A stretch of DNA of 64,000 nucleotides, taken from the NCBI GenBank assembly GCA_016748015.1, contig JAAOMT010000134.1, forward strand, positions 936,757 through 1,000,756. Reading direction: 5' to 3'. The DNA comes from Geosiphon pyriformis uo1 (Eukaryota > Fungi > Glomeromycota). The notes below the pieces were generated by a model, which saw only the letters and a list, made by a program, of their open reading frames with translations, was not told the DNA's origin and searched no databases. Both the position numbers and the translations under genes were made by a program. This document shows, in pieces, positions 333 through 63,305 of this stretch (position 1 is the stretch's first letter; every line of letters begins with the position of its first letter).

Positions 333-1001
333 TCAAGATTAAGCTCCATCGAAATTGAAGTTAAATTTTTCATTAAATTCTAAGTTACTATAGTGGTTCA
401 ATACTGTGTTATTAATTTGTTGTTGTAATTCTTGAAATTACGAGTTGATAAGTTGTTCAATACTGTTGGTTGTTATTATGTTCATGGTTGGGTCCAATAA
501 TAGTTTGTAACAGTTTTCAAATGCTTTGAAAATTCTGTAAACTGTTTTTGAATGGAATGTAGTATTGGTTTTTCCAATGAAAGATTTTAATAATTGGATA
601 GTTGTTTTGTCAAACACTCTAGTTGAGTCTTTTGAGTATAATGTTTGTATATTCAAGTGCTTTCCTAGTTAATAATAACAGTAGTTAATTGGAAATTTCA
701 TTTTCAAGTTGCTAAATGTGTTTGGTGTTAATTTACTTATTTCTATTTCTTCTATTATTAATGTATTGCCCAATGCTATCTCTAATTTTTCAATAACTTT
801 GCTGATAAATTTGTTGTTATGTTTAGTAATATTATATAATTCAAAATTATGTTTTTTTTTTGTTTTTGGATTTTCTATTGTTCTTTTTATGTATGTTATT
901 TTAGAGCTATTAACTGTAATTTCCAGATCAGATTTCAATTGTTGTAAGCTTTCAACTAATTGTTGAGTTATATTGTTAATGTTTTTTGAAATAAGTATTA
1001 T
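333..1001 (-). pseudogene. ORF3 (orphan 3' ORF) of element C
   Basis: ORFs 669-938 and 438-656 share one frame running 1001 to 333 (223 codons); N-terminus xILISKNINNITQQLVESL resembles ORF3 of A and B; ends FDGA*S*. Confidence 0.7.
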
Positions 1002-1085
1002 TGTTTTAATTTTGACTGCTATTTTGGAATTTTTTGCATGCGTTTTTATGGTTGTTAAATTATTTTTGCTGTGATCTAAGATTAA

Positions 1086-5030: not shown

Positions 5031-5862
5031 TGTTATAGATAATTATTTGGGGTCTCAAGTCAAATAACAAATCTGTAACTTGGTGCTGATTTGGTATTCT
5101 GGTGTTGATATCTAAAGGTTTGTTGCAGAGTTCTTTGTATAATAGACAGAAATTTACTATGGTTGGTTTAAGTTGTTTTCCCAATTTCTGTCTTCAGCAT
5201 GGTGGCCAGTTTAATCTGGCAGTCATGTCTTTCTGGTAAGCTGTCCATTAATATATATAATTTTACCCTTATTCCTGGGTTTTTTACCAGGCTATTTGTA
5301 ACGTCAATAACTCAGCGCTTTAATTCTCTTAATCAATTTAGTACACAACAATAAAATCAAAGAAAAGAAAATAAAGAAAATAAAGAAAAATAAAGAAATA
5401 AGCCAATGCAATTGCAAGTTAGTATCTTGTCAATAGCTGTAATCAAAAGCTATTGTTTCAATATGATTAAGTATCAATTGCTATCAACATGAAGTGTTGA
5501 TAGTGGAGAGTGGATTAAGATAACAAATAATTATTTATTGATATTTGTGAATGGAAAGATTGCTTAGATTAAATCTAAACTGGGAGGTCTGTCTTTTCTA
5601 TTTCTAATGCTATCACTATATATACATAATTTGGATTCTACAAGATCACTCACATTTTCAAGTGATATGTTATAATTTCTCAAGCAATGTTCATATTGCT
5701 GAGCAATATGCCATATTTTCTTGATATTGTTCCACATTGCTGAGTAATGTGCTGTAATTTCTGACATTGCTCTACATTGCTAAGCAATGTGTTCATGTGC
5801 TAACTACTACTTTCTTATTGGCCTACTATTTTTCTATATCTGTTTTTTTTTTATGAGTAATA
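5031..5862 (-). repeat. 3' LTR of B1
   Basis: TGTTAT...GTAATA; homologous to 25000-25821; PPT AAAAGGAGGAGATAA on - strand at 5863-5877. Confidence 0.93.
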
Positions 5863-5875
5863 TTATCTCCTCCTT

Positions 5876-6511
5876 TTAATATTAAGCTCCATCAAAATCT
5901 TCATTTTGAATTAATTCTAGTACTTCTTTTTCAAGTATTGTTTATTTGACTCTGTTTCTCACATTTTCTACTTGTGTATTGTTCATTCTTCCCCATTGGT
6001 TAATGGTTATGGTTTCCATGTCAAAGTATAACAGTATTTCTGGATAGTTTTAAAATATGTTGTGTAGTCAGTACATTGTTTTAACATATAGTGTTAAATT
6101 TGTTTTTTTTCCAATAAATTCTTCAATTTGCTATATTATGTCTTGGTTGAATATTCTCTTGGATTTGTTGATATACAACTCCTAAATATTCAACTTTTGA
6201 TCTAATTGGTAGTAGCAATATGATATTGAAAGTTATTCTGTCCATTGCTTCCAATTTTCTTTTGTAAGCTCTTCTATTAGTGCCATAATAGGTATTTTCT
6301 CAAAAGTGTTCTTCACTTTTTCTATTAAATTATCTGTCCAGTTTTTATCATTCCTTGGTGGCTGCTAATATGATGTATTCTTTGTCTTTTTTTGGGTGTT
6401 TTGATAGCAAATTATTTGGTTGTTAATAACAATTTCCATGTCTAACTGTTGTTGACTTAAAGCCTAGAACAATTGTTGAGCTATAGTGTAAATATGATCT
6501 GGTATTTCCAT
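5876..6511 (-). pseudogene. ORF3 (orphan 3' ORF) of B1
   Basis: ATG at 6511, MEIPDHIYTIAQQLF*ALSQQQLDMEIVINN...; 212-codon span ending EDFDGA*Y* at the PPT. Confidence 0.7.
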
Positions 6512-6565
6512 TTTTCTTGGTTGCTTTTGTCATGTGTACTGTGTTTTTATATACTTTTTGGTTGT

Positions 6566-8008: not shown

Positions 8009-8873
8009 TGTTACTCATAAAAAAAAAAACAGATATAGAACAATAGTAGGCCAATAAAAAAGCAGTAATTAGCATGTGAGCACATTGCTCAGCAATGTGG
8101 AGCAATGTCAAAAATCATGGCACATTGTTTAGCAATGTGGAGCAATGTCAAAAAAATATGGCACATTGCTTAGCAATGTGAGCATTGTTTGAGAAATTAT
8201 AGCACATTACTCAAGAATGTGAGCGATCTTATAGAACCCAAATTATGTATATATAATAGTAGTATTAGAAGTAGAAAAGCCAGACCTCCCAGTTTAGATT
8301 TAATTCAAGCAACTTTTTTATTCACAAATATCAATAAATAATTATTCACTATCTTAAATCTACTCTTCACGATTAACACTTTATGTTGATAGCAATTGAT
8401 ACTTAACCACACTAGAACAATAGCTCTTAATTACAGCTATTGACGAGATACTAACTTGCAATTATATTGGCTTATTTTTTCATTTTTTTTCATTTTTTTT
8501 ATTTTATTTTCTTTGCTTTTATTGTTATGTATTAAATTAATTAAGAGGATTAAAGTGCTAAGTTATTGACGTCACAAATAGTCTGGTAAAAAACCCAGAA
8601 ATAAGAATAGAATTATATATATTAATGGACAGCTTACTAGAAGAGCATGACTGTCAGATTAAACTGGCCACCATGCTGAAAACAGAAATTGGGAAAACAA
8701 CTTGAGGAAAACAACTTAAACCAACTATAGTGAATCTTTGTTTATTATACAAAGAACTCTGCAACAAACTTTTAGATTCACCAAACCTTCAAATATCAAC
8801 ACCAGAATACCAAACCAGCACCAAGTTATGGATTTGTTATTTGACTTGAGATTCCAAATAATCATCTGTAATA
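8009..8873 (+). repeat. Solo LTR of family B, inverted, inserted at the end of B1 RNase H
   Basis: Reverse complement of the B1 LTRs; TGTTAC...GTAATA; flanks TCAT/CTGT fit a deaminated CCGT TSD. Confidence 0.9.
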
Positions 8874-14000: not shown

Positions 14001-14760
14001 GGCTTTTTTAATGTCATTAAGCCATATTTGGGTGTCATCTTTTTTGCCAGTGAATTTCTTAAGTTTTGCTATTGGAACATAGGCCATTAGATCCAAGTTT
14101 GGTTGTTGAAGTTGTTGTTGTGGCTGTTGAAATGGCTGTTGTGGTTGTTGTAATAGTATTTGTTGTAATTGGATCAGTTCAATTGGTGGCTAATCAATAA
14201 CAATTATTGGAGGTAAGTTTTGCTGATTAATTAACTCAGAGTTTGGATTGTTTTAATTCAGTGATGTTTAAATATTTGAAGTTCCGATTTCCAGATTTTC
14301 CAAGTTTAAATTTTGCTGAGTTTGTAGGTTTGGGGTTTCAATTTCCAGGTTTTCTGGAATCAGGTTCTGGTAAGTAAATTCTTGATCTTCAGATTCTTTT
14401 TTCTGTTCTCCTTCCAATTCCATTATTTCTCAAGGACTTATAGTTCTGAAATTGGATTGGGGTAGCAGAGATCGAAGTTCTAATGTCATTGGCAATCATG
14501 ACTTGAATCCTTTAAAATACGTGCCATATAATCTTAGAAGATCTTCTTTCTTTTGTTTACTCTGAAATGGGAATCATCCAAATGTTGATGTCATAGTTGA
14601 TATGAATATGCCTGTTGATATAATGTTAATGGCACTTCCAGGTGTATAGTGGTATGATGGATTTGCTGGTAATTCAACTCTGGTTTTCTTCCAAGTGGGT
14701 GGTTGTATTTGTTTTGGTGTTACTGCTGTTTGCAATCTTCTTTTGCCTTTGTCTGTGTAG

Positions 14761-15740
14761 TGTTACCAGAGGTTTTTGGTCTCTTTTCTTAAATGTTGTC
14801 AATGCTTGTTTGCTGTGAATTCACGTTTTCTGGATGTGGTTGAACCTCCAATAACTGAATTTATCTTCAAATTATCTCCTATAATTTGAATTGCTGGGCT
14901 TATAAGTAGAATGGCCAATTCCATGCCAGTTACTTTATGTAGTTACATTGTAGTAAATGTCAACTCTTTTCCAGGAATTGCTTGTCTGGAAGCTCACTAA
15001 AATGTATAATCACTTTGCTGTAAAAGTCAACTCTTCTTCAGAAATCTTGTCTGTAGACTACCCTAATGATTATAGTAAAAAAATAAAAAAGAAAATGAAA
15101 AGATGTAAAAGAAATGGAATTCTGTCAAGAGAAACGTTTTCAATCCAGGCCTGAAGTCACTAACAAATTATTGAAATTGGTAGCTAATCAATTTCAAAAC
15201 GTTAGTTGGGTTTTGGGAATTTTCCAAGTGCAATAATTAAAGAATTTGGTTTTTCGAATTATTTGATATTTATTTCTTTTTATATGTATAGGAATGGTTC
15301 TAAGTGATAAATCTAAAGTAAGATACATTTTCTCAAAGAGAGAAGCTCTTCTTTTATACAACTTGTCATAACACTATTCTATGAACTTGAACTTTGCTAT
15401 TTTCTACAATTTTGCTAAACTAAAGATACATTTCGGCGAACTACAAGTTATTTCTGCGAACTATTAGATATTTCGGTGAACTATCAATTATTTCAGCGAA
15501 TTTCTATAAATTTCAGCGAACTTTTGAATGTTACATAGTTTGGGGTATTGCATTATTGATCATCGTAATTAGGTTACATTTGTGTTGTGTACAATTTGGG
15601 TTATTAATTAAATGATAATTTCGGACATTTTTTTGCTAATGTAATAAGTGATAATTTGAACTGATAATATATGCTAATTAATGATAGAAATTATAAGATA
15701 GTTTCATGCTAAATAATATCTCTAATTTTGTTTGGTAACA
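14761..15740 (-). repeat. 3' LTR of A1
   Basis: TGTTACCA...TGGTAACA terminal inverted repeats; PPT GAGGAGGAGG on - strand at 15744-15753. Confidence 0.95.
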
Positions 15741-16428
15741 TAACCTCCTCCTCAAGATTGAGCTCCATCGAAGTCCAAGTACTGTTTGTTATTTCCAGAT
15801 AATAATCCAAAATTATTAAAGAAATTTGGTTTGAAAATTGTTGAAATTTCAGTTCTGTAAGCTTTCTAATGTATTGAATTTTCAAAGGTTGAAAAATTGG
15901 GTTTTGTAGTACGTTTTCACAGATGTGGAATAGGTCATAAAGTCTAAGAGCAGCTCTGAGCCTGTAGCGACTGTTTGTTGATCCAGCTGTTGTCTTGAAT
16001 TTGTTGTAGAGTTGTTTCTGAATAGCTTCTTTTGTGAGGTTTGCTGTTGTAAGTTCCAGTTTCCATTCATAGAGTGTTTTTCTAATGTGGAAATATCTAT
16101 AGATTGGAGGATATTCAGTGTTTTTCTCATTAAGACACAGTTGAAGTCTTTGTTGAATTGTAGCATTTAGTGGAATACTAATCGAAGTGAGCATTAAATT
16201 TTCTTTTAAAGCAAGCTTTAAAAGTTCTGGTAGGTGAATTCCAGTATAACTTCTTGTGTTCTTTTTATACAGGTGATATTTTTGTGAATTTGGGGCTAAA
16301 TTTGTAACTACTTCTGTTTAGATATAATTAATGTGGTTTCCAGTAACAATAATAGATAATTCAGGTATTGTTTTTAAAGTTAACATTAGTTTTTGGGATA
16401 ATTGTTGAATGTTTTGAGGAATAGTCAT
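15709..16428 (-). pseudogene. ORF3 (orphan 3' ORF) of A1, 240 codons, one internal stop
   Basis: MTIPQNIQQLSQKL...YRYFHIRKTLYEW...RAALRLYDLF...; reads through the PPT into the LTR; conserved in A2. Confidence 0.8.
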
Positions 16429-16549
16429 TATAAGCAATTTGAAATAAAAGAAAATTATTTTTGGTACATGGGTTTTTATGTTATTTTTGTTTTGTTTTTG
16501 TGAGATTGTTTCTAAATTATAAGAAAATAACTATAATAATAAATTTAAA

Positions 16550-17935
16550 TTAAGTGTTCAAGTTGGGAGGCTGTTCAATGACAACTATTGGTTCTAAATT
16601 TCAGGAAATATCTTCGGGATTGATTAAAGATGAATGTGTATCAATTTGTGAAATTAATGGTTCAGGATTGTTTCTGAAATTATAGTGTTTCAAATGATCT
16701 TCATGTGCAACTTTTGCTAGAATTTTGTCATCAAGTCTTAGCTTGTATAATCTGTTGCCTAAAACTTCATGGATAAAGAATGGTCCATCTCATTTATTTT
16801 CAAATTTCCTACTCCATTGTTTTTCAGCTTTAGTTCTGTGTAAGAGAACTTTGTTTCCGATTTTAAATTTATTGGTGACTGGAGGCAATTTGTCATCATG
16901 CCGTTCTTTTTGTCGAGCTTGGGAGTTTTCAATATAAGTGGCTGCTATTCGTCGTTTTCCTTTCAACATGCTAAGCAGAGTGTAAGCTCTTCATTAAAGT
17001 GTTTCCTGAAAATCATTTTTATTGATTAGTTGTGCTGGGTATGTTTCTACTGTGAACTTAATTGGTAGTGTTGCTGTCCTTCTGTAAGTTAAATCAAATG
17101 GTTTGTGTTTTGTGGTATCTTGTTTTAGTGTTCTATATGCTAATAACACTGATGGAATAAAGATATCTTATTCTTGCTCAAAATCAGTTAAAACTTTGGC
17201 TAATGACTCACACAATGTTCTGTTAAAACGTTCCATAAGTTTGTTTGTTTGTGGATGGTAAGGCGAAGACAGAGGTCTTTTGACATTGAATTGTTCGCAA
17301 ATTTCTTGTATTAGGTTGTTCACAAAATGTGTCCCTTAATTAGATAAAAGTTCAATTAGACATCTGTGTCTACAAATAATGTCTTCGTAGATAAAATTTG
17401 CTACTGATTTCACATCTACTTGTTGAATGGCTCTGGCTTCGGGCCATTTAGTAAGATAGTCTACAGCTACTGCAATATAACGGTTTCCTTGAGTGGTGAT
17501 AGATAATGGTCTGACTAAATCGATACCAACTCGGTCAAAAGGTTGTCCAACTTTAATTAGATTTAATGATTCAGTAGGGCGTGTTTCTCCTCTTCTTTGA
17601 CAACTATTACAAGATTCGACATATTCATGAATGTCTTTCCTCATTTGAGGCCAAAAGTAGTATTCTAGTGTTCTTTGGGTGGTGCTATCTTTTCTGAAGT
17701 GTACTGATAAAGGATCTGAGTGCATGTTGTATAATATGGTCTCTTTTTCTTGTTCTTGTATTAATCTAAGTGGTTTGTCTGGGTTTTTGAAATTTCAATG
17801 ATAAATAATGTTGTTGTATAGAAAATATTGTTTGGCTTGTTGTTGTAGTCAATGTTTTTCATCTGGAGACTAATCTGTTGGGATTGTTAATGTTTCCAAA
17901 TATTGTTTAAAATTGTTGTAGTTTTCTGAATTCAT
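16550..17935 (-). pseudogene. Stand-alone integrase ORF of A1
   Basis: ATG at 17935 (MNSENYNNFKQYL); HHCC, DDE core, DGPF; 462-codon span. Confidence 0.93.
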
Positions 17936-17984
17936 TGTTTGTTGGCTCTTTTGGTTAGTTAAGTTGAGTGTTGGTTTTTGTTTT

Positions 17985-20900
17985 CTAATCTTGTCTCATT
18001 CTGGAAAGACAGTCAACATTGGTGTGGAGTTTTCCTGGTTTGTGATGTACTATGTATCAATAGTTTGCTAGAAATCCTGTCCATCGGGTTTGTTTTGCAT
18101 TCAGCTGAGTATTTTTGTTTTGAAGCCATTTGAGTCCAATATTATCAGTGATAATATCAAATTCTTTAGGCCTGAGATAAAGGTTGAAGTGATATAGGGC
18201 CCAAATTACGGCTGCTGTTTCTAGTTCTATGGCAGGGTAGTTTTTCTCAGCTGGTTTTAATGTTCTGCTAGCATAAGCAATTACTCGCTTATTTCCGTTG
18301 TCATCTAGTTGTAATAAGATGGCACCAAAGGCAGTATGTGAAGCATCTGTAGCTAGTCGAAATTGGTTGCTGAAATCTGGGTAGGCGAGAATTGGAGCTG
18401 TTGTCAGTTTTTCCTTGAGAATTTCAAAAGCTTTTTGGTGTTCGGTAGTCCATTTGTATTCAACATTTTTGGTGGTGAGCTGGTTGAGGGGTTTTGCAAT
18501 TTCCGAGAATCCTTTGATAAACTTCCGATAGTAGGATGCTAATCCTATGAATTCTCTTAGTTCTGTAGTATTTTGTGGAACTTTGAAGTTCTTAACAGCA
18601 CTGATTTTTTCTGGATCTGGTTTGACTCCTTCTTCACTAACTATGTGACCAAAAAAGGCCAAACTTGTTTTTCCAAAATGGCATTTCTTAATGTTTAGTT
18701 TTAATCCTGCTTTATGTAATCATTGAAAAACTTCTTACAGGTGAAATAAATGAAGTTCGAAAGATGGGGAATAAACATCAGTGTCATCAAGATAGACAAC
18801 TACTGATTTCCAAAGGAGTCCAGCATATACAACATCCATGAGTCTTTGGAATGTTGCTGGCGCATTGTATAATCCAAAGAGCATTACATTGAATTCGTAG
18901 TTTCCTTCTTGTGTTGTGAATGCTGTTTTGGGGTGGTCCTTGGGATTCATGGCAACTTGCCAGTATCCGCTTTCTAGGTCTAATGTTGAATAGTATTTAG
19001 ATTTTCCAAGGGCATCTAACATGTCATCAATTTGTGGAAGAGGGTAAGCATCTCCAATGGTGATACTGTTGAGTTGTCAATATTCAACACAAAATCATAT
19101 CTTTCTATTCTTCTTTTTAACTAGGACTACTGGTGAGGCCCATAGACTCATTAATGGTTGGATAAGCCCATTGTTAAACATCTGTTGTACTTCTTCTTGG
19201 ATAAATTGGTGGCTTTCTGGAGCAACTCGGTAGGCTTGTTGTCACCTTGGTTTGGCATCTCCTGTATAGATTTGGTGTTGCATCAAATCGGTTCTTCCTA
19301 AGTCATTGTTGTTTTCAGCAAAGATATCAGCAAAATCTGCAATTAGTTTCTTGAGCTGGTTTTGTTGTTGTAGTTCAAGTTGTCCCATGTTGATTTGAGA
19401 TAGTTTTTCCATAACAATATGGTAGTTTTTGGAGCTGGAGTTTGGGTTGATTTTTGGTAGTGAATGTCCAATAATTTCAGAAAAATTGGGGACTGTTTGG
19501 GGTAATTCTTGTTGAAAGATGTTACTGTGAATGATTCCAATTTCTAAGTTATTTAATAAAACTATGGGATAATTGTTGGGATTGTAAAAAGTAATTTGGA
19601 CTTTCTTTGTTCCTTCTGGAATATAAATGTTTGGGATCAAGATATTATGTTTCAAGCAGATTTGTTTATTTGATTCAAAAATTTGTTGTGTGGTTGTTGG
19701 CTTTTCACAAATGTAAATTTCAGGGTATTCTCCAAAGGGTGAAATGGTAATTGGTTGTGGAAGTTGTAAAATCTGGTGAGATTTTTTCTGTTCATTAAGA
19801 GCTATGTTTACTGGAACTGTGAAACGTTCAGTTGAACCAAAACCTTGTGTTTCTCTTTCACTTTTTCCCAACTGTTTTCTTTGATTAACTAATTGTAAAC
19901 CCGAAATGTTGATTAAGGGTAAATAGATAGCTTAAGCAATTTTTTCAGCATATCCAATTTTGAAAGGTTTATCAGTTTCATTTTGTAACATGACTGTGAT
20001 GTCTCCTGTGTATTCAGCATTGATGATTCCTCCTCTAACATTGATTCCTTTGCTTGCCAAGGATGATTAGAAAGCAATTTGAACCATTGCTCCTGGTGGG
20101 ATTTCGAGGGCAATTTTAAGGTTGATTTTTGTAAGAAATTTGGGTTTGAGAGTAAGAGTATCTTTTCCTGGATATCTTAGATCATATCCAGCATCAATCT
20201 TGTGGGCTTTTTTTGGTTTTATTCCTTGTCCATTGTTGTTGAAATATTTGAGTTGTAAAGCAGGCTGATTTTTGATGAAATAGGTGGGTGTTGTCTCAAT
20301 TTCTTCTGTCACTTCAAGTTTTCTAAATTCAATTTTGTATTCATCATTTTTGCTGGACAAGGGAATGCTAAGAGCGTAGCATTCAGGACACCACTGTTCA
20401 TCACAAAGCATAATGCATTCTTCACATAGCCTAATGTTCATTTGCTCTAATCATTGAATTTGAGCTTCTTGGATTGGATAGGTGTGACTTGCAATTTGGT
20501 GGTAGACTTCTACTTTGTCTTCATAATCAAATTCAGCTAATTCCATGGTGTATTCAATGTATTCTGCTTCCTTCATTTGATGAACATCTTTTTTGGTAGC
20601 TCCATTAATTAATGCCATTGCTAGGTCAAAAATTATTTTGGCATTATGGGGGTAGTGATAAAGTTTGTTGAGAGCACTATTGTATACTGCATTAAAGAGT
20701 GTTCCTCTTTTTACTTTTTCTGAAATTAATAAAGCATATTGGCAGGTCTGATCGCAGACTCCTCCTCTCATGACTACATCAATCCAATTGCATTCTTTTG
20801 GTAGCATATCTCCACAAGTCAAACAAGAGGTGTTGTCCTATTTTTCACTCCTTTTTATTAGATGGTCCCATCATTCTCTGTGGCAAGTCTTGCAGTAATA

Positions 20901-23606
20901 ACAAGTATGATTTTCATATTCTTCTTTAGGTGAAATGCAGGCTCCCATTGATGATAGTTTCTTGTGGCAGTCCTTACATTTAAGGTGAATATAGGGGTGT
21001 TGTTTCCTTGGTTCAGGTTTTGAGTAAGAGATATTCCATCCAGAGGTTTTGGGTTCAGATTGTGGAGTAAAATGTTCTTGTTCTGTTTCATTGGCCTAGT
21101 TGGATGTTGATCCAAGAGCCATGAATGTTTCAATGAGAGGTTTTTCCTCTTCTGGTTCGAATTCAAAAGCTGGGGCTTTTTCAAAGCGTTTGTTAAATGT
21201 ACCACAAGTGGCAGGTACCCAGGCATATTGTTCTTGATAGAAGATTGTTAACTCTTGTGTTTCTCAATTCAGATTAGCATTGGCTTTTTGAAGCCAATCA
21301 TTTCTGACAAAAGCTTGGTACTGGGGTGCATCCATTACAAGAACTTTGACTGGAATGGTGATTCCATCAAGAGTGAATGGAAAATTGTTAATTTCTCCTA
21401 CTGAGGTCTTTTTCATGCCATCGGCAGTGACAATTACTGTTTGAGCTGGTCGGTCAACATTTCTTTTCAACTGTTGCATTAACTGGTAGGTAATAATGCT
21501 TCTGGTGGATCCACTGTCTAGGATCAAGCAAATTGTCTTTCCTTCGACTTCGGCTTTAGTATACATGGCTGTGATTGCTTTTTGTTCATTGGCAGCTGCA
21601 TTGCTAAGCAGAAATGGTGACTCATTTGCTTCGAACTCAAAAGGGAATATATCTGAAAGGTTAGTGTTTTTAGCAATTCTGGCTGGTGGAATTGTGGTGG
21701 GAGTATAGGAAGGATTTTGTTGTTGTTGTGCTGCAGCTCTACCTTCCAAGAGTGCAGTATGGTGAAAATTCTGTTCTTCCAGCATTGTTAAATAACTGGG
21801 TTGAGTGTGGTAGTGGTTGGATCTTGGTTGAGTGGTATTTTAGGGAACCAATTGGTTGTTCAAACTGATTCTATTGTTGTTTACTTGGTATTAGTTTTGT
21901 GGTGTGAATTGATTTTGTGTAAGCAGTCTTCGAGCAGGTACTTGATAATGTTGTGTGAGCAGTTGTTGATATTGCTGTGGGATTGGCTGTGAGGTGGACT
22001 GATAATAGTTATTTTGGTATTGGGGTTTTGGTGGATAGTAAGCTGGTGGTGGCGGTTGATAATAAAATTGCTGTGGTTGAGGGTAACGTTGATTACTCCT
22101 ATTTTGTTGGTCTCATTGTAGCTTTTTGCAATCTCTTTTCCAGTGGCCAGAGATTCTACAGTAATGGCAACTCTGAGGCTGGTTATTGGAAAGTGGTGCA
22201 AAGTTATTTTGATTTCGTCTTTGGGGTGGTTGATATCTTTGGGGTTGCTGTTGTTGTTGATTGGTGAAATAGTTTTCAACCTTCTTTGTGAATTGGTCAA
22301 TTTTTTCTTCAGCTGCTGAGCTGGTTTCTCCAATTGCCAAATTTACAAGTTTTGTGCGATTGGCCTCTTCTATGGCCATTTCGTATCTTTTTGCATACTG
22401 TATGGCAGAGTTTAAATCTTCTGGCACATGTGAGCAAACTTTTTTAATTAGTTTATCTTTTAGACCAGTGATAAATTGATCCAAGATTTGAGCATCAGAA
22501 TAATAATCGTTTGTTTTGAGTTGGCGAATTTGTCTAAGAAGTTTGTTGAATTTTTCAATATAAGTTATAACAGATTCGGAGAGTTCTTGTTTGATATTTC
22601 GAAAACAATTATGAAGGGTGATAGAGATATTATTGTTAGTGAACTGTTCAAGAAAGGCTGCTTTGAAAGCATTCCAATCATTGAATGGAGTGGCCAAGTT
22701 TTCAAACCATTCTCCTGCTGTTCTTTTGAGAAAGTAGGGAATTGTTTTTAACATTCTTTCAGCATTCCATCCATTTGCATCTCCAGCTTTAGTAACTTGG
22801 TCGAGCCATTCTTGGGAACTGGTTTCAATATCTTCTCCATTGAATTCAGGGATTTTTGTGATGTATGTTGTCATTTTGTCTTCTTCCTTTTCACTGTCTA
22901 TTGATTCTTCTTCAGTTATTTCAGAGTTGTTTTCTTCATTTGCTGTTGTCTCAGAGTGTTTACTTTAATTTTCAGCTAGAAAATCAAGGAGATTAGAACT
23001 AGTTTAAAGGAGTTCTTGTTGTCTGATGGAACTTCTGAGTGCTGTAAAATCTTCTGGTCTTGCAAATTGATTCAAGGGTGAATTAGGTGTTTGTGCTTAT
23101 GCAAGTAAAGCTGGAAAAGGTGTGATAGTAAGTGGAAGTTTTGAACTGGTTCCTTGTTCAGGTGTTTGTAAATGGTTGGCAGTTGTTTTTGGTAGTATTG
23201 GAGTATTTGGGGTGGTTCTTGAGTATTGCTTCAATTTGTTTTTGCCTTTGTTGTTTGTTTCTGTTTCCAATTCAAAATCAATAGTGTATTGAGACTGCAC
23301 TGGATATGTTTCTTCACAGTATTTGATAATGTTAAAATTAAGTTCGTGAAAGTAAGTGGCAAGTGTTTTACTGTTAAGGTCTTCAGTTCCCAACTGTGAA
23401 TAGTGTGCTAAATTATTGTAAAAGTTGCTTCTAACTTCTGAGATATTGTAATTTCCAAAAAGATAATTGTTGATGCGGTTTTCAATGTATTGGTATACTG
23501 ATTTCTTGACAACTTCAATTCCATCTGGAATGTTGAATTTTTGCTTGCAGTGGGTGTAAATTGACTGGTAATACTTTAGAGTTGTTGTGTCTGGTGTGGT
23601 CATCAC
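17985..23606 (-). pseudogene. Single-frame gag-pol of A1 (extension, capsid, CCHC, PR, Cys-rich, dUTPase, RT, RNase H)
   Basis: 5622 nt = 1874 codons from GTG at 23606 to TAG; CHYCRISGHWKRDC; LILDSGS; YLDD; LATDASH; ends DCLSRMRQD*. Confidence 0.93.
19830..20225 (-). pseudogene. dUTPase domain in A1 pol
   Basis: DAGYDLRY, SSLASKG, GIINAEYTGD, EKIA, RETQGFGST. Confidence 0.92.
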
Positions 23607-23637
23607 TTTGAAGTTGTTTTTGCTGTGTTGTTTTTGT

Positions 23638-23649
23638 GGGAGAGCACCA
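23638..23649 (-). promoter_or_regulatory. Primer-binding site, A1
   Basis: LTR end + TT + TGGTGCTCTCCC; A2 has TGGTGCTCTCTC at 37552-37563. Confidence 0.75.
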
Positions 23650-23651
23650 AA

Positions 23652-24631
23652 TATTACCAGAGGTTTTTGGTCTCTTTTCTTAAATGTTGTCAATGCTTGT
23701 TTGCTGTGAATTCACGTTTTCTGGATGTGGTTGAACCTCCAATAACTGAATTTATCTTCAAATTATCTCCTATAATTTGAATTGCTGGGCTTATAAGTGG
23801 AATGGCCAATTCTGTGCCAGTTATTTTATGTAGTTATGTTGTAGTAAATGTCAACTCTTTCCCAGGAATTGCTTGTCTGGAAGCTCACTAAAATGTATAG
23901 TTACTTTGCTGTGAAAGTCAAATCTTCTTCAGAAATCTTGTCTGTAGGCTACCCTAATAATTATAATAAGAAAATAAAAAAGAAAATGAAAAGATGTAAA
24001 AGAAATAGAATTCTGTCAAGGGAAACGTTTTCAATCTAGGTCTGGAGTCACTAACAAATTATTGAAATTGGTAGCTAATCAATTTCAAAATGTTAGTTGG
24101 ATTTTGGGGATTTTCTAAGTACAATAATTAAAGAATTTGGTTTTTCAAATTATTTGATATTTATTTTTTTTTGTGTGTGTAGGAATGGTTCTAAGTGATA
24201 AATCTAAAGTAAGATACATTTTCTCGAAAAGAGAAGCTCTTCTTTTATACAACTTGTCATAACACTATTTTATGAACTTAAACTTTGCTATTTTCTACAA
24301 TTTTGCTGAACTAAAGATACATTTCGGCAAACTACAAGTTATTTCTGTAAACTATTAGATATTTCAGTAAACTATCAATTATTTCGGCAAATTTCTATAA
24401 ATTTCAGTGAACTTTTGAATGTTACATAGTTCAGGATATTGCATGATTGATCATCGCAATTAGGTTACATTTGTGTTGTGTACAATTTGGGTTATTAATT
24501 AAATGATAATTTTGGACATTTTTTTGCTAATGTAATAAGTAATAATTTGAACCAATAATATATGCTAATTAATGATAGGAATTATAAGATAGTTTCATGC
24601 TAAATAATATCTCTAATTTCGCCTGGTAACA
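23652..24631 (-). repeat. 5' LTR of A1
   Basis: Pairs with 14761-15740; ends TGGTAACA. Confidence 0.95.
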
Positions 24632-24937
24632 GTAGGTAATAGGGAATTATTGTTGCATATACCTTTCAATGGTTTGATTGATTTCCCTAATGATTGTAAA
24701 ACTGTAGTTTCTTGATAAACTGGTATGTTGAAATAATTCTGTATAGAAGTTTTCTCTTGCAGATTCAATGTTAATTGTTCCTTCTAAGCAGTCTGTGATT
24801 TTATCATTGACATAGAAATTAAAGACTGATTCCACTGGGAAATAATTATTGTTTAATCCTAATTGTTGGCTGTACTGTTGAAACAAGAATTTGGCAAATT
24901 CTAAATGGTTTGTCCCTATGATTTCTGATTCTGCCAC
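24632..24937 (-). pseudogene. 5' end of B1 gag (N-terminal extension)
   Basis: AAAAGTGGCA start, (V)AESEIIGTNHL...; continues at 14760 across the A1 TSD. Confidence 0.8.
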
Positions 24938-28678: not shown

Positions 28679-29658
28679 TGTTACCGGAGGTTTTTGGTCT
28701 CTTTTCTGTAATGTTATTGATACTTATTTGCTGTGAATTCACGTTTTCTGGATGTGGTTGAACCTTCAGTAACTGAATTTATCTTCAAATTATCTTCTAT
28801 AATTTGAACTGCTGGGCTTATAAGTAGAATAGCCAATTCCTTGTCAGTTATTTTATGTAGTTACATTGTAGTAAACGTCAACTCTTTCCCAGGAATTGCT
28901 CGTCTGGAAGCTCACTAAAATGTATAGTTACTTTGCTGTGAAAGTCAACTCTTCTACAGGAATCTTGTCTGTTGGCTACCCTAATGATTGTAATAAGAAA
29001 ATAAAAGAAAAATAAAAGAAATGTAAAAAAAATAGGATCTTATCAAGGGAAACGTTTTCTATTCAGACCTGGAGTCACTAACAGTTTACTGAAATTGGTA
29101 GCTAATCAATTTCGAAATGTTAGTTGAGTTTTGGGGATTTTCCAAGTACAATAATTTAGAGAATTTGGTTTTTCGAATTATTTGATATTTATTTCTTTTT
29201 GTGTGTATAAAAATGGTTTGTAAAAGATAAATCTAAAGTAAGATACATTTTTTTGAAGAGAGAAGCTTTTCTTTTATACAACTTGTCATAACACTATTCT
29301 ATGAACTTGAACTTTGCTATTTTCTAAAATTTTGCTGAACTAAAGATACATTTCAGCAAATTACAAGTTATTTCAGTGAACTATTAGATATTTCGGTGAA
29401 CTATCAATTATTTCGGCGAATTTCTACAAATTTCAGCGAACTTCTGAATGTTACATAGTTTGGGGTATTGCATGATTGATCATCGCAATTAGGTTACATT
29501 TGTGTTGTGTACAATTTGGGTTATTAATTAAATGATAATTTCAGACATTTTTGCTAATGTAATAAGTGATCATTTGAAATGATAATATATGCTAATTAAT
29601 GATAGGAATTATAAGATAATTTCATGCTAAATAATATTTCTAATTTTGTCTGATAACA
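28679..29658 (-). repeat. 3' LTR of A2
   Basis: TGTTACCG...TGATAACA; PPT GAGGAGGAGG adjacent on - strand. Confidence 0.95.
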
Positions 29659-30347
29659 TAACCTCCTCCTCAAGACTGAGCTCCGTCGAAGTCCAAGTAC
29701 TGTCTGTTATTTCCAGATAATAATCCAAAATTATTGAAGAAATTTGGTTTGAAAATTGTTGAAATTTCAGTTCTGTGAGCTTTCCAATGTATTGAATCTT
29801 CAAAGATTAAAAAATTGGGTTTTGTAGTATGTTTTCACAGGTGTGAAATAGGTCATAAAGTCTAAGGGCAGCTCTAAGCCTGTAGCAACTGTTTGTTAAT
29901 CCAGTTGTTGTTTTGAATTTGTTGTGGAGTTGTTTTTGAATAGCCTCTTTTGTGAGGTTTGCTGTTGTAAGTTCCAGTTTCCATTCGTAGAGTGTTTTTC
30001 CTATGTGAAAATATCTATAGATTGGAGGATATTCAGTGTTTTCCTCATTGAGACACAGTTGAAGTTTTTGTTGAATTGTAGCATTTGGTGGAATACTAAT
30101 CAGAATGGGCATTAGGTTTTCTCTTAAAACAAGCTTTAAAAGTTCTGGTAGGTGAATTCTAGTATAACTTCTTGTGTTCTTTTTATACAGGTGATATTTT
30201 TGTGAATTTGGGGCTAAATTTGTAACTACTTCTGTTTGGGTATAATTAATGTAGTTTCCAGTAACAGTAATGGATAATTTGGGTATTTGTTTTTAAAGCT
30301 AACATTAGTTTTTGGGATAATTGTTGAATGTTTTAAGGAATAGTCAT
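29627..30347 (-). pseudogene. ORF3 of A2
   Basis: Homologue of 15709-16428 with a 1-nt frameshift and stops. Confidence 0.8.
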
Positions 30348-30465
30348 TATAAGCAATTTGAAATAAAAGAAAATTATTTTTTGGTGTATGGGTTTTTATG
30401 TTATTTTTTGTTTTGTTTTTGTGAGATTGTTTCTAAATTATAAGAAAATAACTAGTAAAATTAAA

Positions 30466-31851
30466 TTAAGTGTTCAGGTTAAAAGGTTGTTCAATGACAA
30501 CTATTGGTTCTAAGTTTTGGAGAATGTCTTCGGGACTGACCAAAGGGGAATGTGTACTGATTTGTGAAATTAATGGTTCAGGATTGTTTCTGAAATGATA
30601 GTGTTTCAAACGATCTCCATGTGCAACTTTTGCTAGGATTTTGTTATCAAGTCTTAGCTTGTATGATCCATTGCCTAGGACTTCATGGATAAAGAATGGT
30701 CCATCCTATTTATTTTCAAATTTTCCACTCCATTGTTTTTTAGCTTTAGTTCTGTGTAAGAGAACTTTGTTTCCAATTTTGAATTTATTGGTAACTGAAG
30801 GCAATTTGTCATCATGCTATTCTTTTTGTTGAGCTTGGGAGTGTTCAATATGGGTGACTGTTATTCATTGTTTTCTTTCCAATGTGCTAAGCAGAGTGTA
30901 GGCTCTTTGCTGAAGCATTTTTTGGAAATTGTTTTTATTGATCAGTTGTGCTGGGTATGTTTCCACTGTGAAACTAATTGGTAACGTTGCCGTCCTTCCA
31001 TAAGTTAAATCAAATGGTGTGTGTTTTGTGGTATCTTGTTTTAATGTCCTATATGCTAGTAACACTGATGGGATAAAGAGATCCCATTCTTGCTCAAAAT
31101 TAGTTGAGACTTTGGCTAATGACTCACACAATGTTCTGTTAAACCGTTCCACAAGTCCATTTGTTTGTGGATGGTAGGGCAAAGACAGAGGTCTTTTGAC
31201 ATTGAATCGTTCACAAATTTCTTGTATCAGGTTGTTCACAAAGTGTGTTCCCTGATCGGATAAAAGTTCAATTGGATATCCATGTCTACAAATAATGTCT
31301 TCGTAGATAAAATTTGCTACTGATTTTGCATCTGCTCGTTGAATGGCTCTGGCTTCAGGCCATTTAGTAAAATAGTCTACAGCTACTGCAATATAACAGT
31401 TTCCTTGAGTGGTAATAGATAGTGGTCCGACTAAATCGATACCAACTCTGTCAAAAGGCTGTCCAACTTTGATTGGATTTAAAGGTTCTGTAGGGTGAGT
31501 TCCTTCTCTTCTTTGACAAATATCACAAGATTCAACATATTTGTGAATGTCTTTTCTCATTTGAGGCCAAAAGTAGTATTCTATTGTTCTTTGGGTGGTG
31601 CTATCTTTTCCGAAGTGTGCTGATGAAAGATCTGAGTGCATATTGTATAAAATGGTCTCTTTTTCCTGTTCTTGTATTAATCTGAGTGGTTTGGTTGGGT
31701 TTTTGAAATTTTGATGATAGATAATATTGTTGTGTAGAAAATATTGTTTGGCTTGTTATTGTAACTAATGTTTTTTGTCTGGGGACCAATCTGTTGGGAT
31801 TGTTAATGTCTCCAAATATTGTTTGAGATTATTGTAGTTTTTGGGGTTCAT
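30466..31851 (-). pseudogene. Stand-alone integrase ORF of A2
   Basis: ATG at 31851 (MNPKNYNNLKQYL); MHSDLSSAHF..CDICQ; GIDLVGP; SDQGTHF; NGLVERFN; 462-codon span. Confidence 0.94.
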
Positions 31852-31899
31852 TGTTTGTTGTTTTGATGCTGTTAATTCAAATGGGTGTTGGTTTTGTTT

Positions 31900-34800
31900 C
31901 TAATCTTGCCTCATCCTTGAGAGACAATCAACGTTGGTGTGAAGTTTTCCTGGTTTGTGGTGTACGATGTATTGGTAATTAGCTAAAAATCCTGTCCATC
32001 AGGTTTGTTTTGCGTTCAGCTGGGTGTTTTTGTTTTGAAGCCATTTAAGTCCAATATTATCAGTGATAATATCAAATTCTTTGGGTCTGAGGTAAAGGTT
32101 GAAGTGATGTAGGGCCCAGATTACTGCTACAGTTTCTAATTCTGTTGTGGGGTAGTTCTTTTCAGCTGGCTTTAATGTTCTACTAGTATAAGCAATTACT
32201 CGCTCATTTCCATTGTCATCTAACTGTGATAGGATAGCACCAAAGGCAGTATAAGAAGCGTCAGTTGCTAACCAGAATCGGTTGCTGAAGTCTGAGTAGA
32301 TGAGGATTGGGGCTGTTGTGAGTTTTTCCTTGAGTATCTCAAAGGCATTTTGGTGTTCTTTTGTCCATTTGTATTCGACATTTTTCGTAGTGAGCTGGTT
32401 GAGGGTTTTTGCAATTTCTGAGAATTCTTTGATGAATTTTTGGTAATAGGATGCTAATCCAATAAATCCTCTTAATTCTGTGGTATTTCGTGGAGTCTTG
32501 AAGTTTTTGACAGTACTGATTTTTCCAGGGTCTGGTTTAATTCCATCTTTGCTAACAATGTGACCAAGAAAAGCTAAACTTGTCTTTCCAAAGTAGCATT
32601 TTTCAATGTTCAGTTTCAATCCTGCTTTCCGTAATCGTTGAAAAACTTCTCACAGGTGAATTAAATGTAGCTCAAAAGATGGTGAATAAACATCAGTGTC
32701 ATCAAGATAAACTACTACTGATTTCCAAAGGAGGCCTTTGTAAACAACATCCATGAGTCTTTGGAATGTTGCTGGTGCATTGCATAATCCGAAAGGCATT
32801 ACATTGAACTCGTAATTTTCTTTTTGAGTGGTGAATGCTGTTTTGGGGCAGTCTTTGAGATCCATAGCAACTTGCCAGTATTCACTCTCTAAATTTAATA
32901 TTGAAAAGTATTTGGACTTTTCAAGGGCATCCAACATGTCATCAATTTGGAGAAGAGGGTAGGCATCCCCAATGGTGACACTGTTGAGTTGTCAGTAATC
33001 AACACAAAAGCATATCTTTCCATTTTTTTTTTAACTAGAACCACAGGTGAGGCCCATGGGCTCATTGATGGTTGAATAAGCCTATTGTTAAGCATCCATT
33101 GTACTTCTTCTCGAATAAATTGGTGACTTTCTGGAGCAACTCGGTAGGCTTGTTGTCACCTGGGTTTGGCATCTCTTGTATAGATTTGGTGTTGAACCAA
33201 ATCAGTTCTTCCTAAGTCATTGTTGTTTTTGGCGAAGATATCAGCAAATTCTGCAATTAGTTCTTTGAGCTGGGTCTGTTGTTGTAGTTCAAGTTGTCCC
33301 ATGTTGATTCGAGATAGTTTTTTCATGACAACATGGTAGTTTTCAGAGCTAGGATTTGGGTTGATTTTCAGTAGTGAATGTCCAATAATTTCAGAGAAAT
33401 CGGAGACTGTTTGGGGTAATTTTTGTTGAAATATATTATTGTGAATAACTCCAATTTCTAAATTATTTAATAAAATTATGGGGTAATTATTGGGGTTGTA
33501 AAAAGTAACTCGGACTTTCTTTGTTCCTTCTGGAATATAAATGTTTGGGATCAAAATATTATGTTTCAAGCAGACTTGTTCATTGAACTCAAAAATTTGT
33601 TGTGTGGTTGTTGGCTTTGTGCAAGTGTAAATTTCTGGATGTTCTCCAAAGGGTGAGATGGTAATCGGTTGTGGAAGTCTGAGAATCTGGTGGGATTCGT
33701 TCTGTGTGTTAAGAGCTATATTAACTGGAACTGTGAATTGTCCAGTTGAACCAAAACCTTGGGTTTCTCTATCGCTTTTTCCTAATTGTTCTCTTTGATT
33801 GACTAGTTGCAAACCCGAAATGTTGATTAAGGGTAGGTAAATAGCTTGGGCAATTTTTTCAGCATGTTCAATCTTGAATGGTTTGTCAGTTTCATTTTAA
33901 AGCATTACTGTTATGTCTCCAGTATATCTAGCATCGATTATTCCTCCTCTGACATTGATTCCTTTGCTTGCCAGAGAGGACTGAGAGACGATTTGAACCA
34001 TTGCTCCTGGTGGGATTTCGAGTGCAATTTTGAGGTTGATTTTTGTGAGAGATTTGGGTTTGAGAACAAGAGTATCTTTGCCTGGATATCTTAGGTCATA
34101 TCCAGCATCAATTTCGTGTGCTTTTTCAGGTTTTATTCCTTGTCCATTGTTGTTGAAATATTTAAGTTGTAAGGCAGGCTAATTTTTGATAAGGTAGATG
34201 GGTGTTGTTTCAATTTCTTCTGTTTCTTCAGGTTCTCCAAATTCAATTTCATTCTCATCATTTTCGCTGGGCAAGGGGATACTAAGAGCATAGCATTCGG
34301 AACACCATTGTTCATTGCAAGGCATAATGCATTCTTCACATAGCCTAATGTTCATTTGCTCTAATCATTGAATTTGAGCTTCTTGGGTCGAGTAGGTGTG
34401 ACTTGCAATTTGGTGATAGACTTTTACTTCATCTTCGTAATCGAATCCAGCTAATTCCATAGTGTATTCAATGTATTCTGCTTCCTTCATTTGATGAACA
34501 TCTTCTTTGGTAGCTTCATTAATTAATGCCATTGCTAAGTCGAAAATCATCTCGGCATCATGAGGGTAGTGATAAAGTTTGTTGAAAGCACTGTTGTATG
34601 CTGCATTAAAGGGTGTTCCTCTTTTTACTTTTTCTGAAATTGATAAGGCATATTGGCAGGTCTGATCGCAGACGCCTTTTCTCATTGCTACATTAATTCA
34701 ATTGCATTCTTCTGGTAGCATATCTTCACAAGTCAAACAAGCAGTGTTGTCCCATTTTCTGCTTCTTTTTATTAGATGGCCCCATTACTCTCTGTGGCAA

Positions 34801-37520
34801 GCCTTGCAGTAATAACAAGTGTGATTCTCATATTCTTCTTCAGGTGAAATGCAGGCTCCCATTGATGATAGTTTCTTGTGGCAGTCCTTACATTTAAGGG
34901 GAATATAGGGGCGTTGTTTTCTTGGTTCAGATTTTGAGTAAAGTATATTCCATCCAGAGGTTTCAGGTTTAATGTGTATGGTAAAATGTTCTTGTTTTGT
35001 TTCATCAGCCCAGTTGGACGTTGATCCAAGAGCCATGAATGTTTCGATTATTGGTTTTTCTTCTTCTGGTTCAAATTCAAAAGCCGGGGCTTTTTCAGAG
35101 TGTTTGTTGAATGTACCACAAATGGCAGGTACCCGGGCGTGTTGTCCTTGGTAGGAGATTGTTAACTCTTGTGTTTCACAGTTCAGATTAGCATTGGCTT
35201 TTTGAAGCCAATCATTTCCGACAAGAGCTTGGTACTGGGGTGCATCCATTACAAGAACTTTGACTGGAATGGTGATTCCATCAAAAGTGAATGGAAAATT
35301 GTCAATTTCTCCTACTGGTGTCTTTTTCATGCCATCAGCAGTAACAATTACTGTTTGAGCCAGTCGGTCGATATTTCTTTTCAACTGTTGCATTAACTGG
35401 TAGGTAATAATGCTTCCAGCAGATCCACTGTCTAGGATCAAGCGAATTGGCTTTCCTTTTACTTCAGCTTCTGTGTACATTGTAGTGATGACTTTTTGCT
35501 TATTAGCCGCTGCATTGCTAAGCAAGAATGGTGATTCATTTGCTTCAAATTCAAAAGGAAAGATATCAGAAAAATTGGCGTTTTTAGCAATTTGGGCTGG
35601 TGAAATAGTAGTGTGATTATGAGAAGGGTTTTGTTGTTGTTGTGCTGCAGCTCTACCTTCCGAAAGTGCAGTATGGTGAAAATTCTGTTCTTCTGGCATT
35701 GTTAAATAACTGGGTTGAGTGTGGTAGTGGTTGGGTCTTGGTTGAGTGGAATTTTGGAGAACCAATTGGTTGTTTGGACTGATTCTATTGTTGTTTACTT
35801 GGTATTGGTTTTGTGGTGTGAATTGATTTTGTGTAATCAGTCTTCGAGTAGGTACTTGATAATGTTGTGTGGGTGGTTGTTGGTATTGCTGTTGGATTGG
35901 TTGTAGGGCAGGCTGATAATAGTTATTTTGGTATTGGGATCTTGGTGGATAGTAAGCTGGTGGTGATGGTTGATAATAAGATTGCTGTGGTGGAGAGTAA
36001 CATTGATTACCCCTGTTTTGTTGGTCTCGCTGTAGCTTTCTGCAATCTCTTTTCCAGTGGCCAGAGATTCCACAGTAATGGCAATTCTGGGGCTGGTTAT
36101 TTGAAAGTGGTGCAAAGTTATTTTGATTTTGTCTTTGGGGTGGTTGATATCTTTGAGGTTGTTGTTGTTGTTGGTTGGTAAAATAGTTTTCGACCTTCTT
36201 TGTGAGTTGGTCAATTTTTTTCTCAGCTGCTGAGCTGGTTTCTCCAATTGCCAAATTTACAAGTTTTGTACGATTAGCCTCTTCCATGGCCATTTCATAT
36301 CTTTTCACATGCTGGATGGCAGAGTTTAAATCTTCTGGCGTGTGTGGGCGAACCTTTTTAATTAGTTTATCTTTTAGACCAGCAATAAATTGATCCAAGA
36401 TTTGAGCATCAGAATAATAATTGTTTGTTTCGAGTTGGCGAATCCGTCTGAGAAGTTTGTTGAATTTCCCAATATAAGTCATAACGGATTCGAAAAGTTC
36501 TTGTTTGATATTTCGAAAACGATTGCAAAGAGTGATAGAGGTATTATTGTCGATGAACTGTTCAAGGAAGACTGCTTTGAAAGCATTTCAATCATTGAAT
36601 GGGGCGGCAAGGTTTTCAAACCATTCTTCTGCTGTGCCTTTGAGAAAGTAGGGAATTGTTCTTAACATTCTGGCAGTGTTCCATCCATTTGCATCTCCAG
36701 CTTTAGTAACTTGGTCGAGCCATTTTTGGGGACTGGTCTCAATATTTTCTCCATTGAATTCAGGGATTTTTGCAATGTATGTTGTCATTTTGTTTTCTTC
36801 ATTTTCACTGTCTATTGATTCTTCTTCAGTTATTTCAAAGTTGTTTTCTTCGTTTGCTGCTGTCTCAGAGTGTTCACTTTGATTTTCAGCTAGAAAATCA
36901 AGGAGATTGGAACTAGTTTGAAGGGGTTCTTGTTGTCTGGTGGGACTTCTGAGTGATGTAAAATCTTCTGGTCTTGCAAATCAATTCAAGAGTGAATTAG
37001 GTGTTTGTGCTTGTACAAGTGAGACTAAAAAAGGTGTGATAGTAAGTGGAAGTTTTGAACTGGTTCCTTGTTCAGGTGTTTGTAAATGTTTAGCAGTTGT
37101 TTTCGGTAGTGTTGGAGTATTTGGGGTGGTTCTTGAATATTGCTTTAATTTGTTTTTGCCTTTGTTGCTTGTTTCTGTTTCCAATTCAAAATCAATAGTG
37201 TATTGAGACTGCACTGGATATGTTTCTTCACAGTATTTAATAATGTTATAATTAAGTTCATGAAAGTAAGTGGCAAGTGTTTTACTATTAAGGTCTTTAG
37301 TTCCCAACTGTGAATAGTGTGCTAAATTATTGTAAAGGTTGCTTCTAACTTCTGAGATATTGTAATTTCCAAAAAGATAATTGTTGATGCGGTTTTCAAT
37401 GTATTAGTATACTGATTTCTTGACAATTTCAATTCCGTCTGGAATGTTGAATCTTTGCTTGCAGTGGGTGTAAATTAATTGGTAATACTCTAGAGTTGTT
37501 GTATCTGGTGTGGTCGCCAC
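31900..37520 (-). pseudogene. gag-pol of A2
   Basis: 565-aa open stretch joins capsid, CCHC and protease in frame; dUTPase, RT (YLDD), RNase H; one 1-nt deletion in a poly-A run at ~33025. Confidence 0.94.
33741..34140 (-). pseudogene. dUTPase domain in A2 pol
   Basis: AHEIDAGYDLRY, SQSSLASKG, GGIIDARYTGD, EKIAQAI, RETQGFGSTG. Confidence 0.94.
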
Positions 37521-37565
37521 TTTGAAGTTGTTTTTGCTGTGTTGTTTCTGTGAGAGAGCACCAAA

Positions 37566-43069: not shown

Positions 43070-43185
43070 ATATATTATTTTATATTATTTTATATTATTT
43101 TGTATTATTATATATTAATTTGTATTATTACATATTATTTTATATTATTATGTATTATTTTATATTAATTATATGTTAATTATGT
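43070..43185. repeat. Degenerate 10-bp tandem repeat (TATATTATTT)n
   Basis: About 11 consecutive units visible. Confidence 0.8.
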
Positions 43186-63253: not shown

Positions 63254-63305
63254 TTTTTCAATAGTATTTATTTTTATTTTTATTTTTCTAAAAGTTTGCT
63301 CCATT

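Follow-up and report, generated by a model that had tools for sequence, protein, structure and literature searches.

Is the open reading frame (ORF) that follows the integrase gene in long terminal repeat (LTR) retrotransposons of the fungus Geosiphon pyriformis a genuine gene and, if so, how might it be expressed and what might its product do? The question arises from a stretch of 64,000 nucleotides of G. pyriformis uo1 (GenBank assembly GCA_016748015.1, contig JAAOMT010000134.1, positions 936,757 to 1,000,756 of the forward strand; hereafter the window, with coordinates counted from its first letter), in which an original prediction, made from the DNA letters, had described such a frame, ORF3, in four elements named A1, A2, B1 and C, and had proposed an accessory protein, not env-like, with its own promoter and possibly a role as transactivator or anti-silencing factor. 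All four frames lie on the minus strand where they had been placed, as found by tblastn and by reading of the ORFs (Table 1). Comparison with their relatives indicates that ORF3 is a real, conserved third gene of several diverged Gypsy elements of G. pyriformis.

Distribution and conservation of ORF3

Every ORF3 of the window stands directly 3' of the integrase C-terminus, in A1 in a frame different from that of pol, and these four are the only copies found there by tblastn with 13 family proteins as queries. All four are broken. An alternative genetic code as a source of the in-frame stops was ruled out from the ORF listings under translation tables 6 and 1; since the gag-protease frame runs for 600 codons without a stop in the standard code and the intact proteins carry Gln at the TAA of A1, the stops reflect decay and not recoding.

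Intact relatives are abundant. When A1 ORF3 was used as query, with X at its stop, 161 proteins were recovered at E<=0.01, and the best 120 of these are all "hypothetical protein G9A89_..." of G. pyriformis. Along its whole length A1 ORF3 shares 92% identity with the intact protein P0002 of 239 amino acids (aa), and at least 23 family proteins are intact, exactly 239 aa long and 81-91% identical to P0002, the best match. A query of the C type added 8 further Geosiphon proteins, and an intact protein of the B type exists as well (P0178, 211 aa). Identity between the three window lineages (A, B and C) is 23-33%, and an alignment of the A profile with the C/B profile (hhalign probability 97.7%, E 2.4e-12, 200 columns) identifies them as homologous. 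The N-terminal pattern IPxxIxxxxQxLxxxL, noted earlier as a shared feature, recurs in all three lineages and in P0155, a relative from a metagenome.

Beyond Geosiphon the family is sparsely represented. Searched with a profile, 1.84 billion representatives yielded 54 matches at E<=0.001, of which 20 were looked up, 17 being Geosiphon proteins and three unnamed metagenome proteins, and a second profile search gave 16 matches (10 Geosiphon and 6 environmental); no named organism other than Geosiphon occurs among the looked-up profile matches, and scans of viral contigs with P0155 and P0179 as queries returned no relatives. A search with the single protein P0158 led to a metagenome contig, L001, which displays reverse transcriptase (RT), RNase H and integrase, a 316-nucleotide (nt) spacer, and then an intact ORF3 of 230 aa running through GAGGAGAAG into an LTR-like TGTTACC. 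The pol of L001 (1-2139) forms one continuous frame with two in-frame stops (774/775 and 1566/1567), and the ORF3 downstream of it is intact.

Across the four lineages compared, integrases share 53-67% identity and ORF3 proteins 23-33%. The pair A-L001 ranks first in integrase identity and among the higher-ranking pairs for ORF3. This pattern fits an ORF3 inherited along with its element and changing faster. Because the homology is deep, intact paralogs are numerous and an intact copy exists in a second organism, ORF3 appears to be a functional gene.

Predicted structure of the ORF3 protein

AlphaFold reached a predicted local distance difference test (pLDDT) score of 50 with a shallow alignment and of 75 with 24 sequences from all lineages, with values of 82-94 over residues 81-210. 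In the model, a helix at residues 5-18, which carries the IPxxIxxxxQxLxxxL pattern, is followed by a beta-hairpin (24-37), a disordered segment (39-60), a second helix (63-76), a helical bundle at about residues 89-188 and a 38-residue C-terminal helix (192-229). In outline, an amphipathic N-terminal helix and its hairpin are predicted to be joined by a disordered basic linker to a helical bundle (about residues 89-170 in this outline), behind which runs the long C-terminal helix.

This arrangement resembles nothing known at a convincing level. For a first model the best VIA score was Z 5.8; for a second, the best hits reached E 0.23 with Foldseek against the Protein Data Bank (PDB), E 0.035 against BFVD and Z 5.8-5.9 in VIA, the N-terminal part being barely covered. 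No convincing match to viral fusion glycoproteins is among them (best E 0.23, E 0.035 and Z 5.9, respectively), and for a predicted helical protein matches of this size do not appear to rise above the expected noise. The structure prediction and Foldseek search called for by the original prediction thus gave no convincing match to a known fold. Sequence searches gave a similar picture: Pfam assigned no consistent family to the four window ORFs and 24 family members, with no env matches among them, a family-profile search of PDB sequences gave 0 matches at E<=10, and the best ESM Atlas score (0.90) was to unnamed clusters and below recognition level. Nor is there any relation to the element's own gag; the ORF3 profile matches that of gag-protease with an hhalign probability of 0.08%, so that ORF3 is not a duplicate of gag or capsid.

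In five proteins representing the lineages there is no transmembrane (TM) segment (maximal 19-residue Kyte-Doolittle means of 0.4-1.3) and no signal-like stretch. Taken together, the conservation across lineages, the many intact paralogs, the confident fold obtained from the family alignment and the lack of a TM segment bear out the view of ORF3 as an accessory protein that is not env-like. The residues conserved in all lineages are hydrophobic or aromatic, apart from one Asn in a G-x-T-N turn; because they include no catalytic-looking set, the protein is probably non-enzymatic.

A candidate nuclear import signal

At residues 41-56, in homologous places, five of seven lineage representatives carry (R/K/H)-x2-5-PY followed by a basic cluster. 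Shuffled sequences contain the motif in a mean of 1.05 of 7 cases, and two of 2000 shuffles reached five. By prediction, residues 41-60 are disordered (pLDDT 34) and basic, with K/R clusters flanking the PY. A passage of PMC2408616 defines the PY nuclear localization signal (PY-NLS) by a C-terminal R/H/K-X2-5-PY motif together with disorder and basic character, and it is in this respect, an R/K/H-x2-5-PY in a disordered basic segment, that ORF3 resembles the PY-NLS cargoes of Kap-beta2/Kap104 described there. Nuclear import of ORF3 through this conserved motif is accordingly a prediction from sequence.

Overlap of ORF3 with the polypurine tract and LTR

ORF3 had been described as lying between integrase and the polypurine tract (PPT). 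This is true of B1 and C, in which the frame stops just before the PPT, whereas in A1 and A2, as in L001, it reads through the PPT and on into the U3 region of the 3' LTR, stopping 29 nt inside the LTR. Around the PPT all five copies, including that from the metagenome, share a nucleotide block of about 40 nt, roughly TTYGAYGGAGCTYAATMTTG-AGGAGGAG-TWATRTTA, which reaches from just 5' of the PPT across the tract into the first LTR bases (within 15700-15790, 29610-29710, 5830-5930 and 290-390 of the window and 3060-3160 of L001). It is translated as ...ELNLEEEVMLP... in A1, A2 and L001 and, in another frame, as ...FDGAQ(Y/S) in B1 and C. As different lineages read the block in two frames, the tail of ORF3 is overprinted on a cis-acting sequence that is conserved as DNA and not as protein.

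Between A1 and A2, synonymous divergence is 0.12 in ORF3 (15712-16428) and 0.28-0.76 in the pol pieces (30865-36587), a difference hinting that the history is mosaic or recombinant, or that an additional nucleotide-level constraint acts at the 3' end.

The pol-ORF3 spacer and its shared motif

The original prediction had placed a TATA-like motif, YATAAAAAC, shortly upstream of ORF3 in the four elements, and it is present at all four places. Within 130 nt 5' of the start, ATAAAAAC is the sole 8-mer common to A1, B1 and C, at -51, -39 and -48. Among 5000 dinucleotide shuffles, some shared 8-mer arose in 11.6% and one within a 12-nt register in 0.38%, the register test being post hoc, run after the motif had been picked. 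Since the pol-ORF3 spacers do not otherwise align, some constraint on ATAAAAAC is likely. A canonical TATAWAWR-type box, TATAAAAA, occurs in B1 only.

In A1, B1 and C a CATG lies 2-11 nt 3' of the 8-mer (at about 16465-16468, 6528-6531 and 1036-1039). The upstream ORF (uORF) starting there has four or six codons in A1 and C and in B1 overlaps ORF3 out of frame; A2 has ATA at this place. Because this sole upstream ATG lies so close behind the motif, a transcript starting 25-30 nt after the motif would have the ORF3 ATG as its first AUG, with a leader of some 10-20 nt.

A proposed role for ORF3 and its alternatives

The reading we favour, tentatively and at slightly less than an even chance, is that a clade of dUTPase-carrying Ty3/Gypsy elements has in ORF3 a genuine third gene, likely to be expressed from its own subgenomic transcript and to encode a nuclear, non-enzymatic helper. 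Transcription would start at the TATA-like element in the short spacer between pol and ORF3; the product would enter the nucleus through the PY motif and its flanking basic residues and would act there on behalf of the element, either by controlling the element's own transcription or silencing or by aiding the pre-integration complex. In a stronger version, which we consider unlikely, the elements would be "complex" in the sense that a separately promoted nuclear regulator switches on its own LTR, perhaps via the U3 repeats, or shields the element from silencing.

Several observations weigh against this proposal, besides the post hoc nature of the register test. YATAAAAAC is common in so AT-rich a window, which contains 13 matches where shuffles average 7.0 +/- 2.8; in place of TATA, CATAAAAA occurs in A1, A2 and C; and no copy of the 8-mer precedes the ORF3 of L001, whose upstream sequence has instead TATAAATA at a distance of about 120 nt and CTTATAAT at -27. 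According to a passage of PMC5408684, moreover, spliced messages are the typical route by which ORF3s of LTR retrotransposons are expressed. As to nuclear import, the proline of the PY varies within the A family, where 25 of the 59 proteins with lengths of 221-245 aa have PY; the motif is missing from P0179 and P0065; and the basic cluster mostly follows the PY, reversing the textbook order. In the variable proline and the order of the basic residues ORF3, a putative cargo, differs from those of Kap-beta2/Kap104. A role as transactivator or anti-silencing factor is plausible, the sole hint of it being the PY-NLS-like motif that predicts a nuclear location. Finally, the ratio of nonsynonymous to synonymous substitution (dN/dS) between A1 and A2 gives no support for selection on ORF3: it is 0.48, from about 47 substitutions between two decayed copies, and the test is uninformative because two off-frame controls gave the same range of values (0.26 and 0.47); for the pol pieces the ratio is 0.09-0.25.

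The same real accessory gene might instead be translated from a spliced subgenomic mRNA started at the LTR promoter, like the env of retroviruses and errantiviruses, which we regard as quite possible, if on balance somewhat improbable. The shared 8-mer would then be no TATA box and could belong to a splice-acceptor or branch region or to the context of a short uORF. Such a route would suit an LTR that carries its own canonical TATAAAAG, a pyrimidine-rich stretch that lies 85 nt 5' of the A1 ORF3 start and ends in TTTAG, AG dinucleotides after the motif in B1 and C, and the missing motif of L001. It fits less well with the lack of a candidate acceptor at a conserved position among the four lineages and of a good donor, judged by eye, in the A1 leader, and with a leader joined 5' of the motif, the messages of A1, B1 and C would contain the upstream ATG ahead of ORF3. 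As routes of ORF3 expression, internal promoter and splicing appear, from these sequence features, about equally probable.

Other readings concern the protein itself. That ORF3 is a cytoplasmic helper, associated with particles or binding RNA and self-associating through its long C-terminal helix in the manner of a rotifer coiled-coil ORF3 or of ORF1p of non-LTR elements, we consider unlikely: the model does contain that 38-residue helix (192-229) and a basic disordered linker, and coiled-coil ("CC") types are listed among rotifer LTR-element ORF3s in a passage of PMC5408684, yet the end of the helix is encoded by the PPT block, which B and C read in another frame, so that this part is not conserved as protein; the position of the PY-basic motif is conserved, and fold searches matched no capsid or chaperone protein (best Z 5.9). 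More radically, ORF3 could be non-functional, either a chance frame in A-rich sequence held open by a cis-acting constraint or a decayed env remnant. The breakage of all four window copies, the overlap of the 3' end with a strongly conserved nucleotide block and a dN/dS no different from that of the off-frame controls would be expected of such a frame. Against it, protein homology persists at 23-33% identity between lineages in which the spacer DNA can no longer be aligned, at least 23 paralogs of 239 aa are intact, the copy of another organism (L001) is intact beside a broken pol, the confident AlphaFold core needs the family alignment, the conserved block spans just the last ~40 nt, and neither a TM segment nor a signal-like stretch is present; we hold this reading to be very improbable indeed.

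The host elements and the surrounding window

The window is AT-rich, with a GC content of 12-39% per 2-kb bin, and is crowded with decayed LTR retrotransposons on the minus strand. GC content is 12-21% in 38000-44000, 52000-54000 and 60000-64000, and 30-39% in the retrotransposon bodies. The LTRs of A1 are about 980 bp each and begin, with TGTTACC in the 3' copy, at 15740 and 24631, so that their starts are 8891 nt apart. In the pol pieces of A1 and A2, Pfam domains follow in the order Retrotrans_gag and zf-CCHC, Asp_protease, dUTPase, RT_RNaseH, and Integrase_H2C2, rve and a Tf2-1-type SH3; the dUTPase domain (PF00692, E 1e-22) is located between protease and RT in the pol of A2 (33156-34364, minus strand), a position it is reported to take also in some fungal Gypsy families and in rotifer elements. 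With two LTRs around gag and a pol ordered protease-RT-RNase H-integrase, and a PPT beside the 3' LTR, the host elements are dUTPase-carrying Ty3/Gypsy (Metaviridae) retrotransposons. A candidate primer-binding site (TGG...) begins at 23649 after the 5' LTR of A1. The integrase C-terminal regions of A1, A2, B1, C and L001 contain no Chromo domain at E<=0.001 (Pfam; only SH3_Tf2-1) and therefore lack the mark of chromoviruses.

The other elements are more reduced. In C (1016-3061, minus strand) a gag piece (2108-3061) abuts the end of integrase (1016-1949), RT being gone and ORF3 kept; C is an internal-deletion derivative. All that remains of B1 is integrase and ORF3. Comparison of A1 (14700-24700) with A2 (28620-38400), columns with N excluded, gave 870 transitions and 178 transversions; 126 of the transition differences are at CpG, and only 110 CpG are left in A2, which fits heavy CpG deamination of methylated repeats. 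Many in-frame stops sit at positions of Gln in intact relatives. Runs of N occupy 37836-37950 (115 bases) and 49918-49937 (20 bases), and because the former lies within the 5' LTR of A2, the LTR spacing of that element is apparently shorter.

Short tandem repeats in U3 differ by lineage: 20 bp x 2.7-3.5 in A (alternatively a 40-bp period over a longer span; at 15430-15522, 24321-24413, 29368-29420 and 37998-38068), 40-41 bp x 2.4-3.5 in B (5665-5791 and 8079-8221) and 23 bp x 2.2-2.4 in C (130-220). They are candidate enhancer or factor-binding repeats. Elsewhere on the minus strand, the open frames 49001-49552 and 50932-51483 are equal in length and offset by 1931 nt, an arrangement suggestive of tandem duplication or of a further repeat family. 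Neither an Rfam scan nor a transfer RNA (tRNA) scan of the window gave a match.

Table 1. Coordinates of ORF3 and associated features in the window
Feature	Position	Strand	Remarks
ORF3 of A1	15712..16428	-	239 codons; ATG 16428-16426; in-frame TAA at codon 37; stop codon 15711-15709
ORF3 of A2	29630..30347	-	stop at codon 5; one-base frameshift near codon 20; stop near codon 179
ORF3 of B1	5879..6511	-	9 in-frame stops; intact form P0178 (211 aa)
ORF3 of C	342..1001	-	start codon ATA; 2-3 in-frame stops; intact form P0122 residues 1-215
pol-ORF3 spacer of A1	16429..16549	-	~120 nt, from pol stop TAA (16552-16550) to ORF3 start
CATAAAAAC motif, A1	16472..16480	-	43 nt before ORF3 ATG; short upstream ATG right after
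CATAAAAAC motif, A2	30392..30400	-	upstream of ORF3
TATAAAAAC motif, B1	6543..6551	-	31 nt before ORF3 ATG, 14 nt after pol stop
CATAAAAAC motif, C	1042..1050	-	upstream of ORF3
Polypurine tract GAGGAGGAGG of A1	15744..15753	-	inside ORF3; 3 nt before LTR start TGTTACC
3' LTR of A1	14760..15740	-	starts TGTTACC; 20-bp tandem repeats 15430-15522; U3 holds final 10 ORF3 codons
5' LTR of A1	23651..24631	-	TATAAAAG at 24249-24242; 20-bp repeats 24321-24413
Integrase of A1	16558..17794	-	H2C2 zinc finger, rve core, Tf2-1-type SH3; interrupted by stops
A2 gag (CCHC), protease, dUTPase, RT/RNase H, integrase	30400..36587	-	in pieces

Comparison with known systems

Additional genes of LTR retrotransposons show retroelements gaining functions towards virus-like complexity, and most of them are unexplained. 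ORF3 offers a workable case, with more than 100 paralogs in one genome, conservation across lineages, occurrence in at least one other organism and no known fold, and also with a testable nuclear-import motif and a candidate internal promoter. Were it a regulator or anti-silencing factor, it would bear on transposon proliferation in the large, repeat-rich genomes of Glomeromycota.

ORF3 is a well-supported new protein family and not a new kind of system, as extra ORFs after pol are already known. In passages of PMC5408684, rotifer LTR elements that likewise have a dUTPase are given ORF3s of the GDSL, DEDDy, coiled-coil, TM and env types, and fungal Gypsy elements are drawn in PMC2864245 with an "add. 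ORF ... with unknown function". What the Geosiphon elements share with the non-env ORF3s of bdelloid rotifers (PMC5408684) and with these fungal extra ORFs (PMC2864245) is a family-specific ORF placed between pol and the 3' LTR or running into the latter, together with a dUTPase domain in the elements and no env features. They differ in that sequence and fold comparisons revealed no kinship of the Geosiphon ORF3 with the GDSL, DEDDy, TM or env types, and in that this ORF3 matches no Pfam model and is seen only in Geosiphon and a few environmental sequences. No description of the ORF3 family or of any Geosiphon ORF3 was found in the literature, the supplementary fungal-element tables of PMC2864245 not being covered.

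A further likeness, in organization and by description, is to viruses and to DNA transposons. If ORF3 is a regulator, it would be a fungal counterpart, on an unseen fold, of the Tas of foamy viruses or the VANC of plants. In complex retroviruses accessory genes overlap the 3' LTR, and in foamy viruses an internal promoter drives tas/bet; here too the structural genes are followed on their 3' side by a small non-structural ORF that overlaps the PPT-U3 region, U3 contains short tandem repeats, and ORF3 may have a separate promoter or transcript. The differences are the lack of homology, the fungal host, the absence of env and the putative nature of promoter and transactivation for ORF3. The VANC proteins, anti-silencing proteins of the VANDAL transposons of Arabidopsis, belong to DNA transposons, and the link of ORF3 to silencing is by analogy only; compared by description, ORF3 is like them a lineage-specific, fast-evolving, probably non-enzymatic accessory protein encoded by a transposon.

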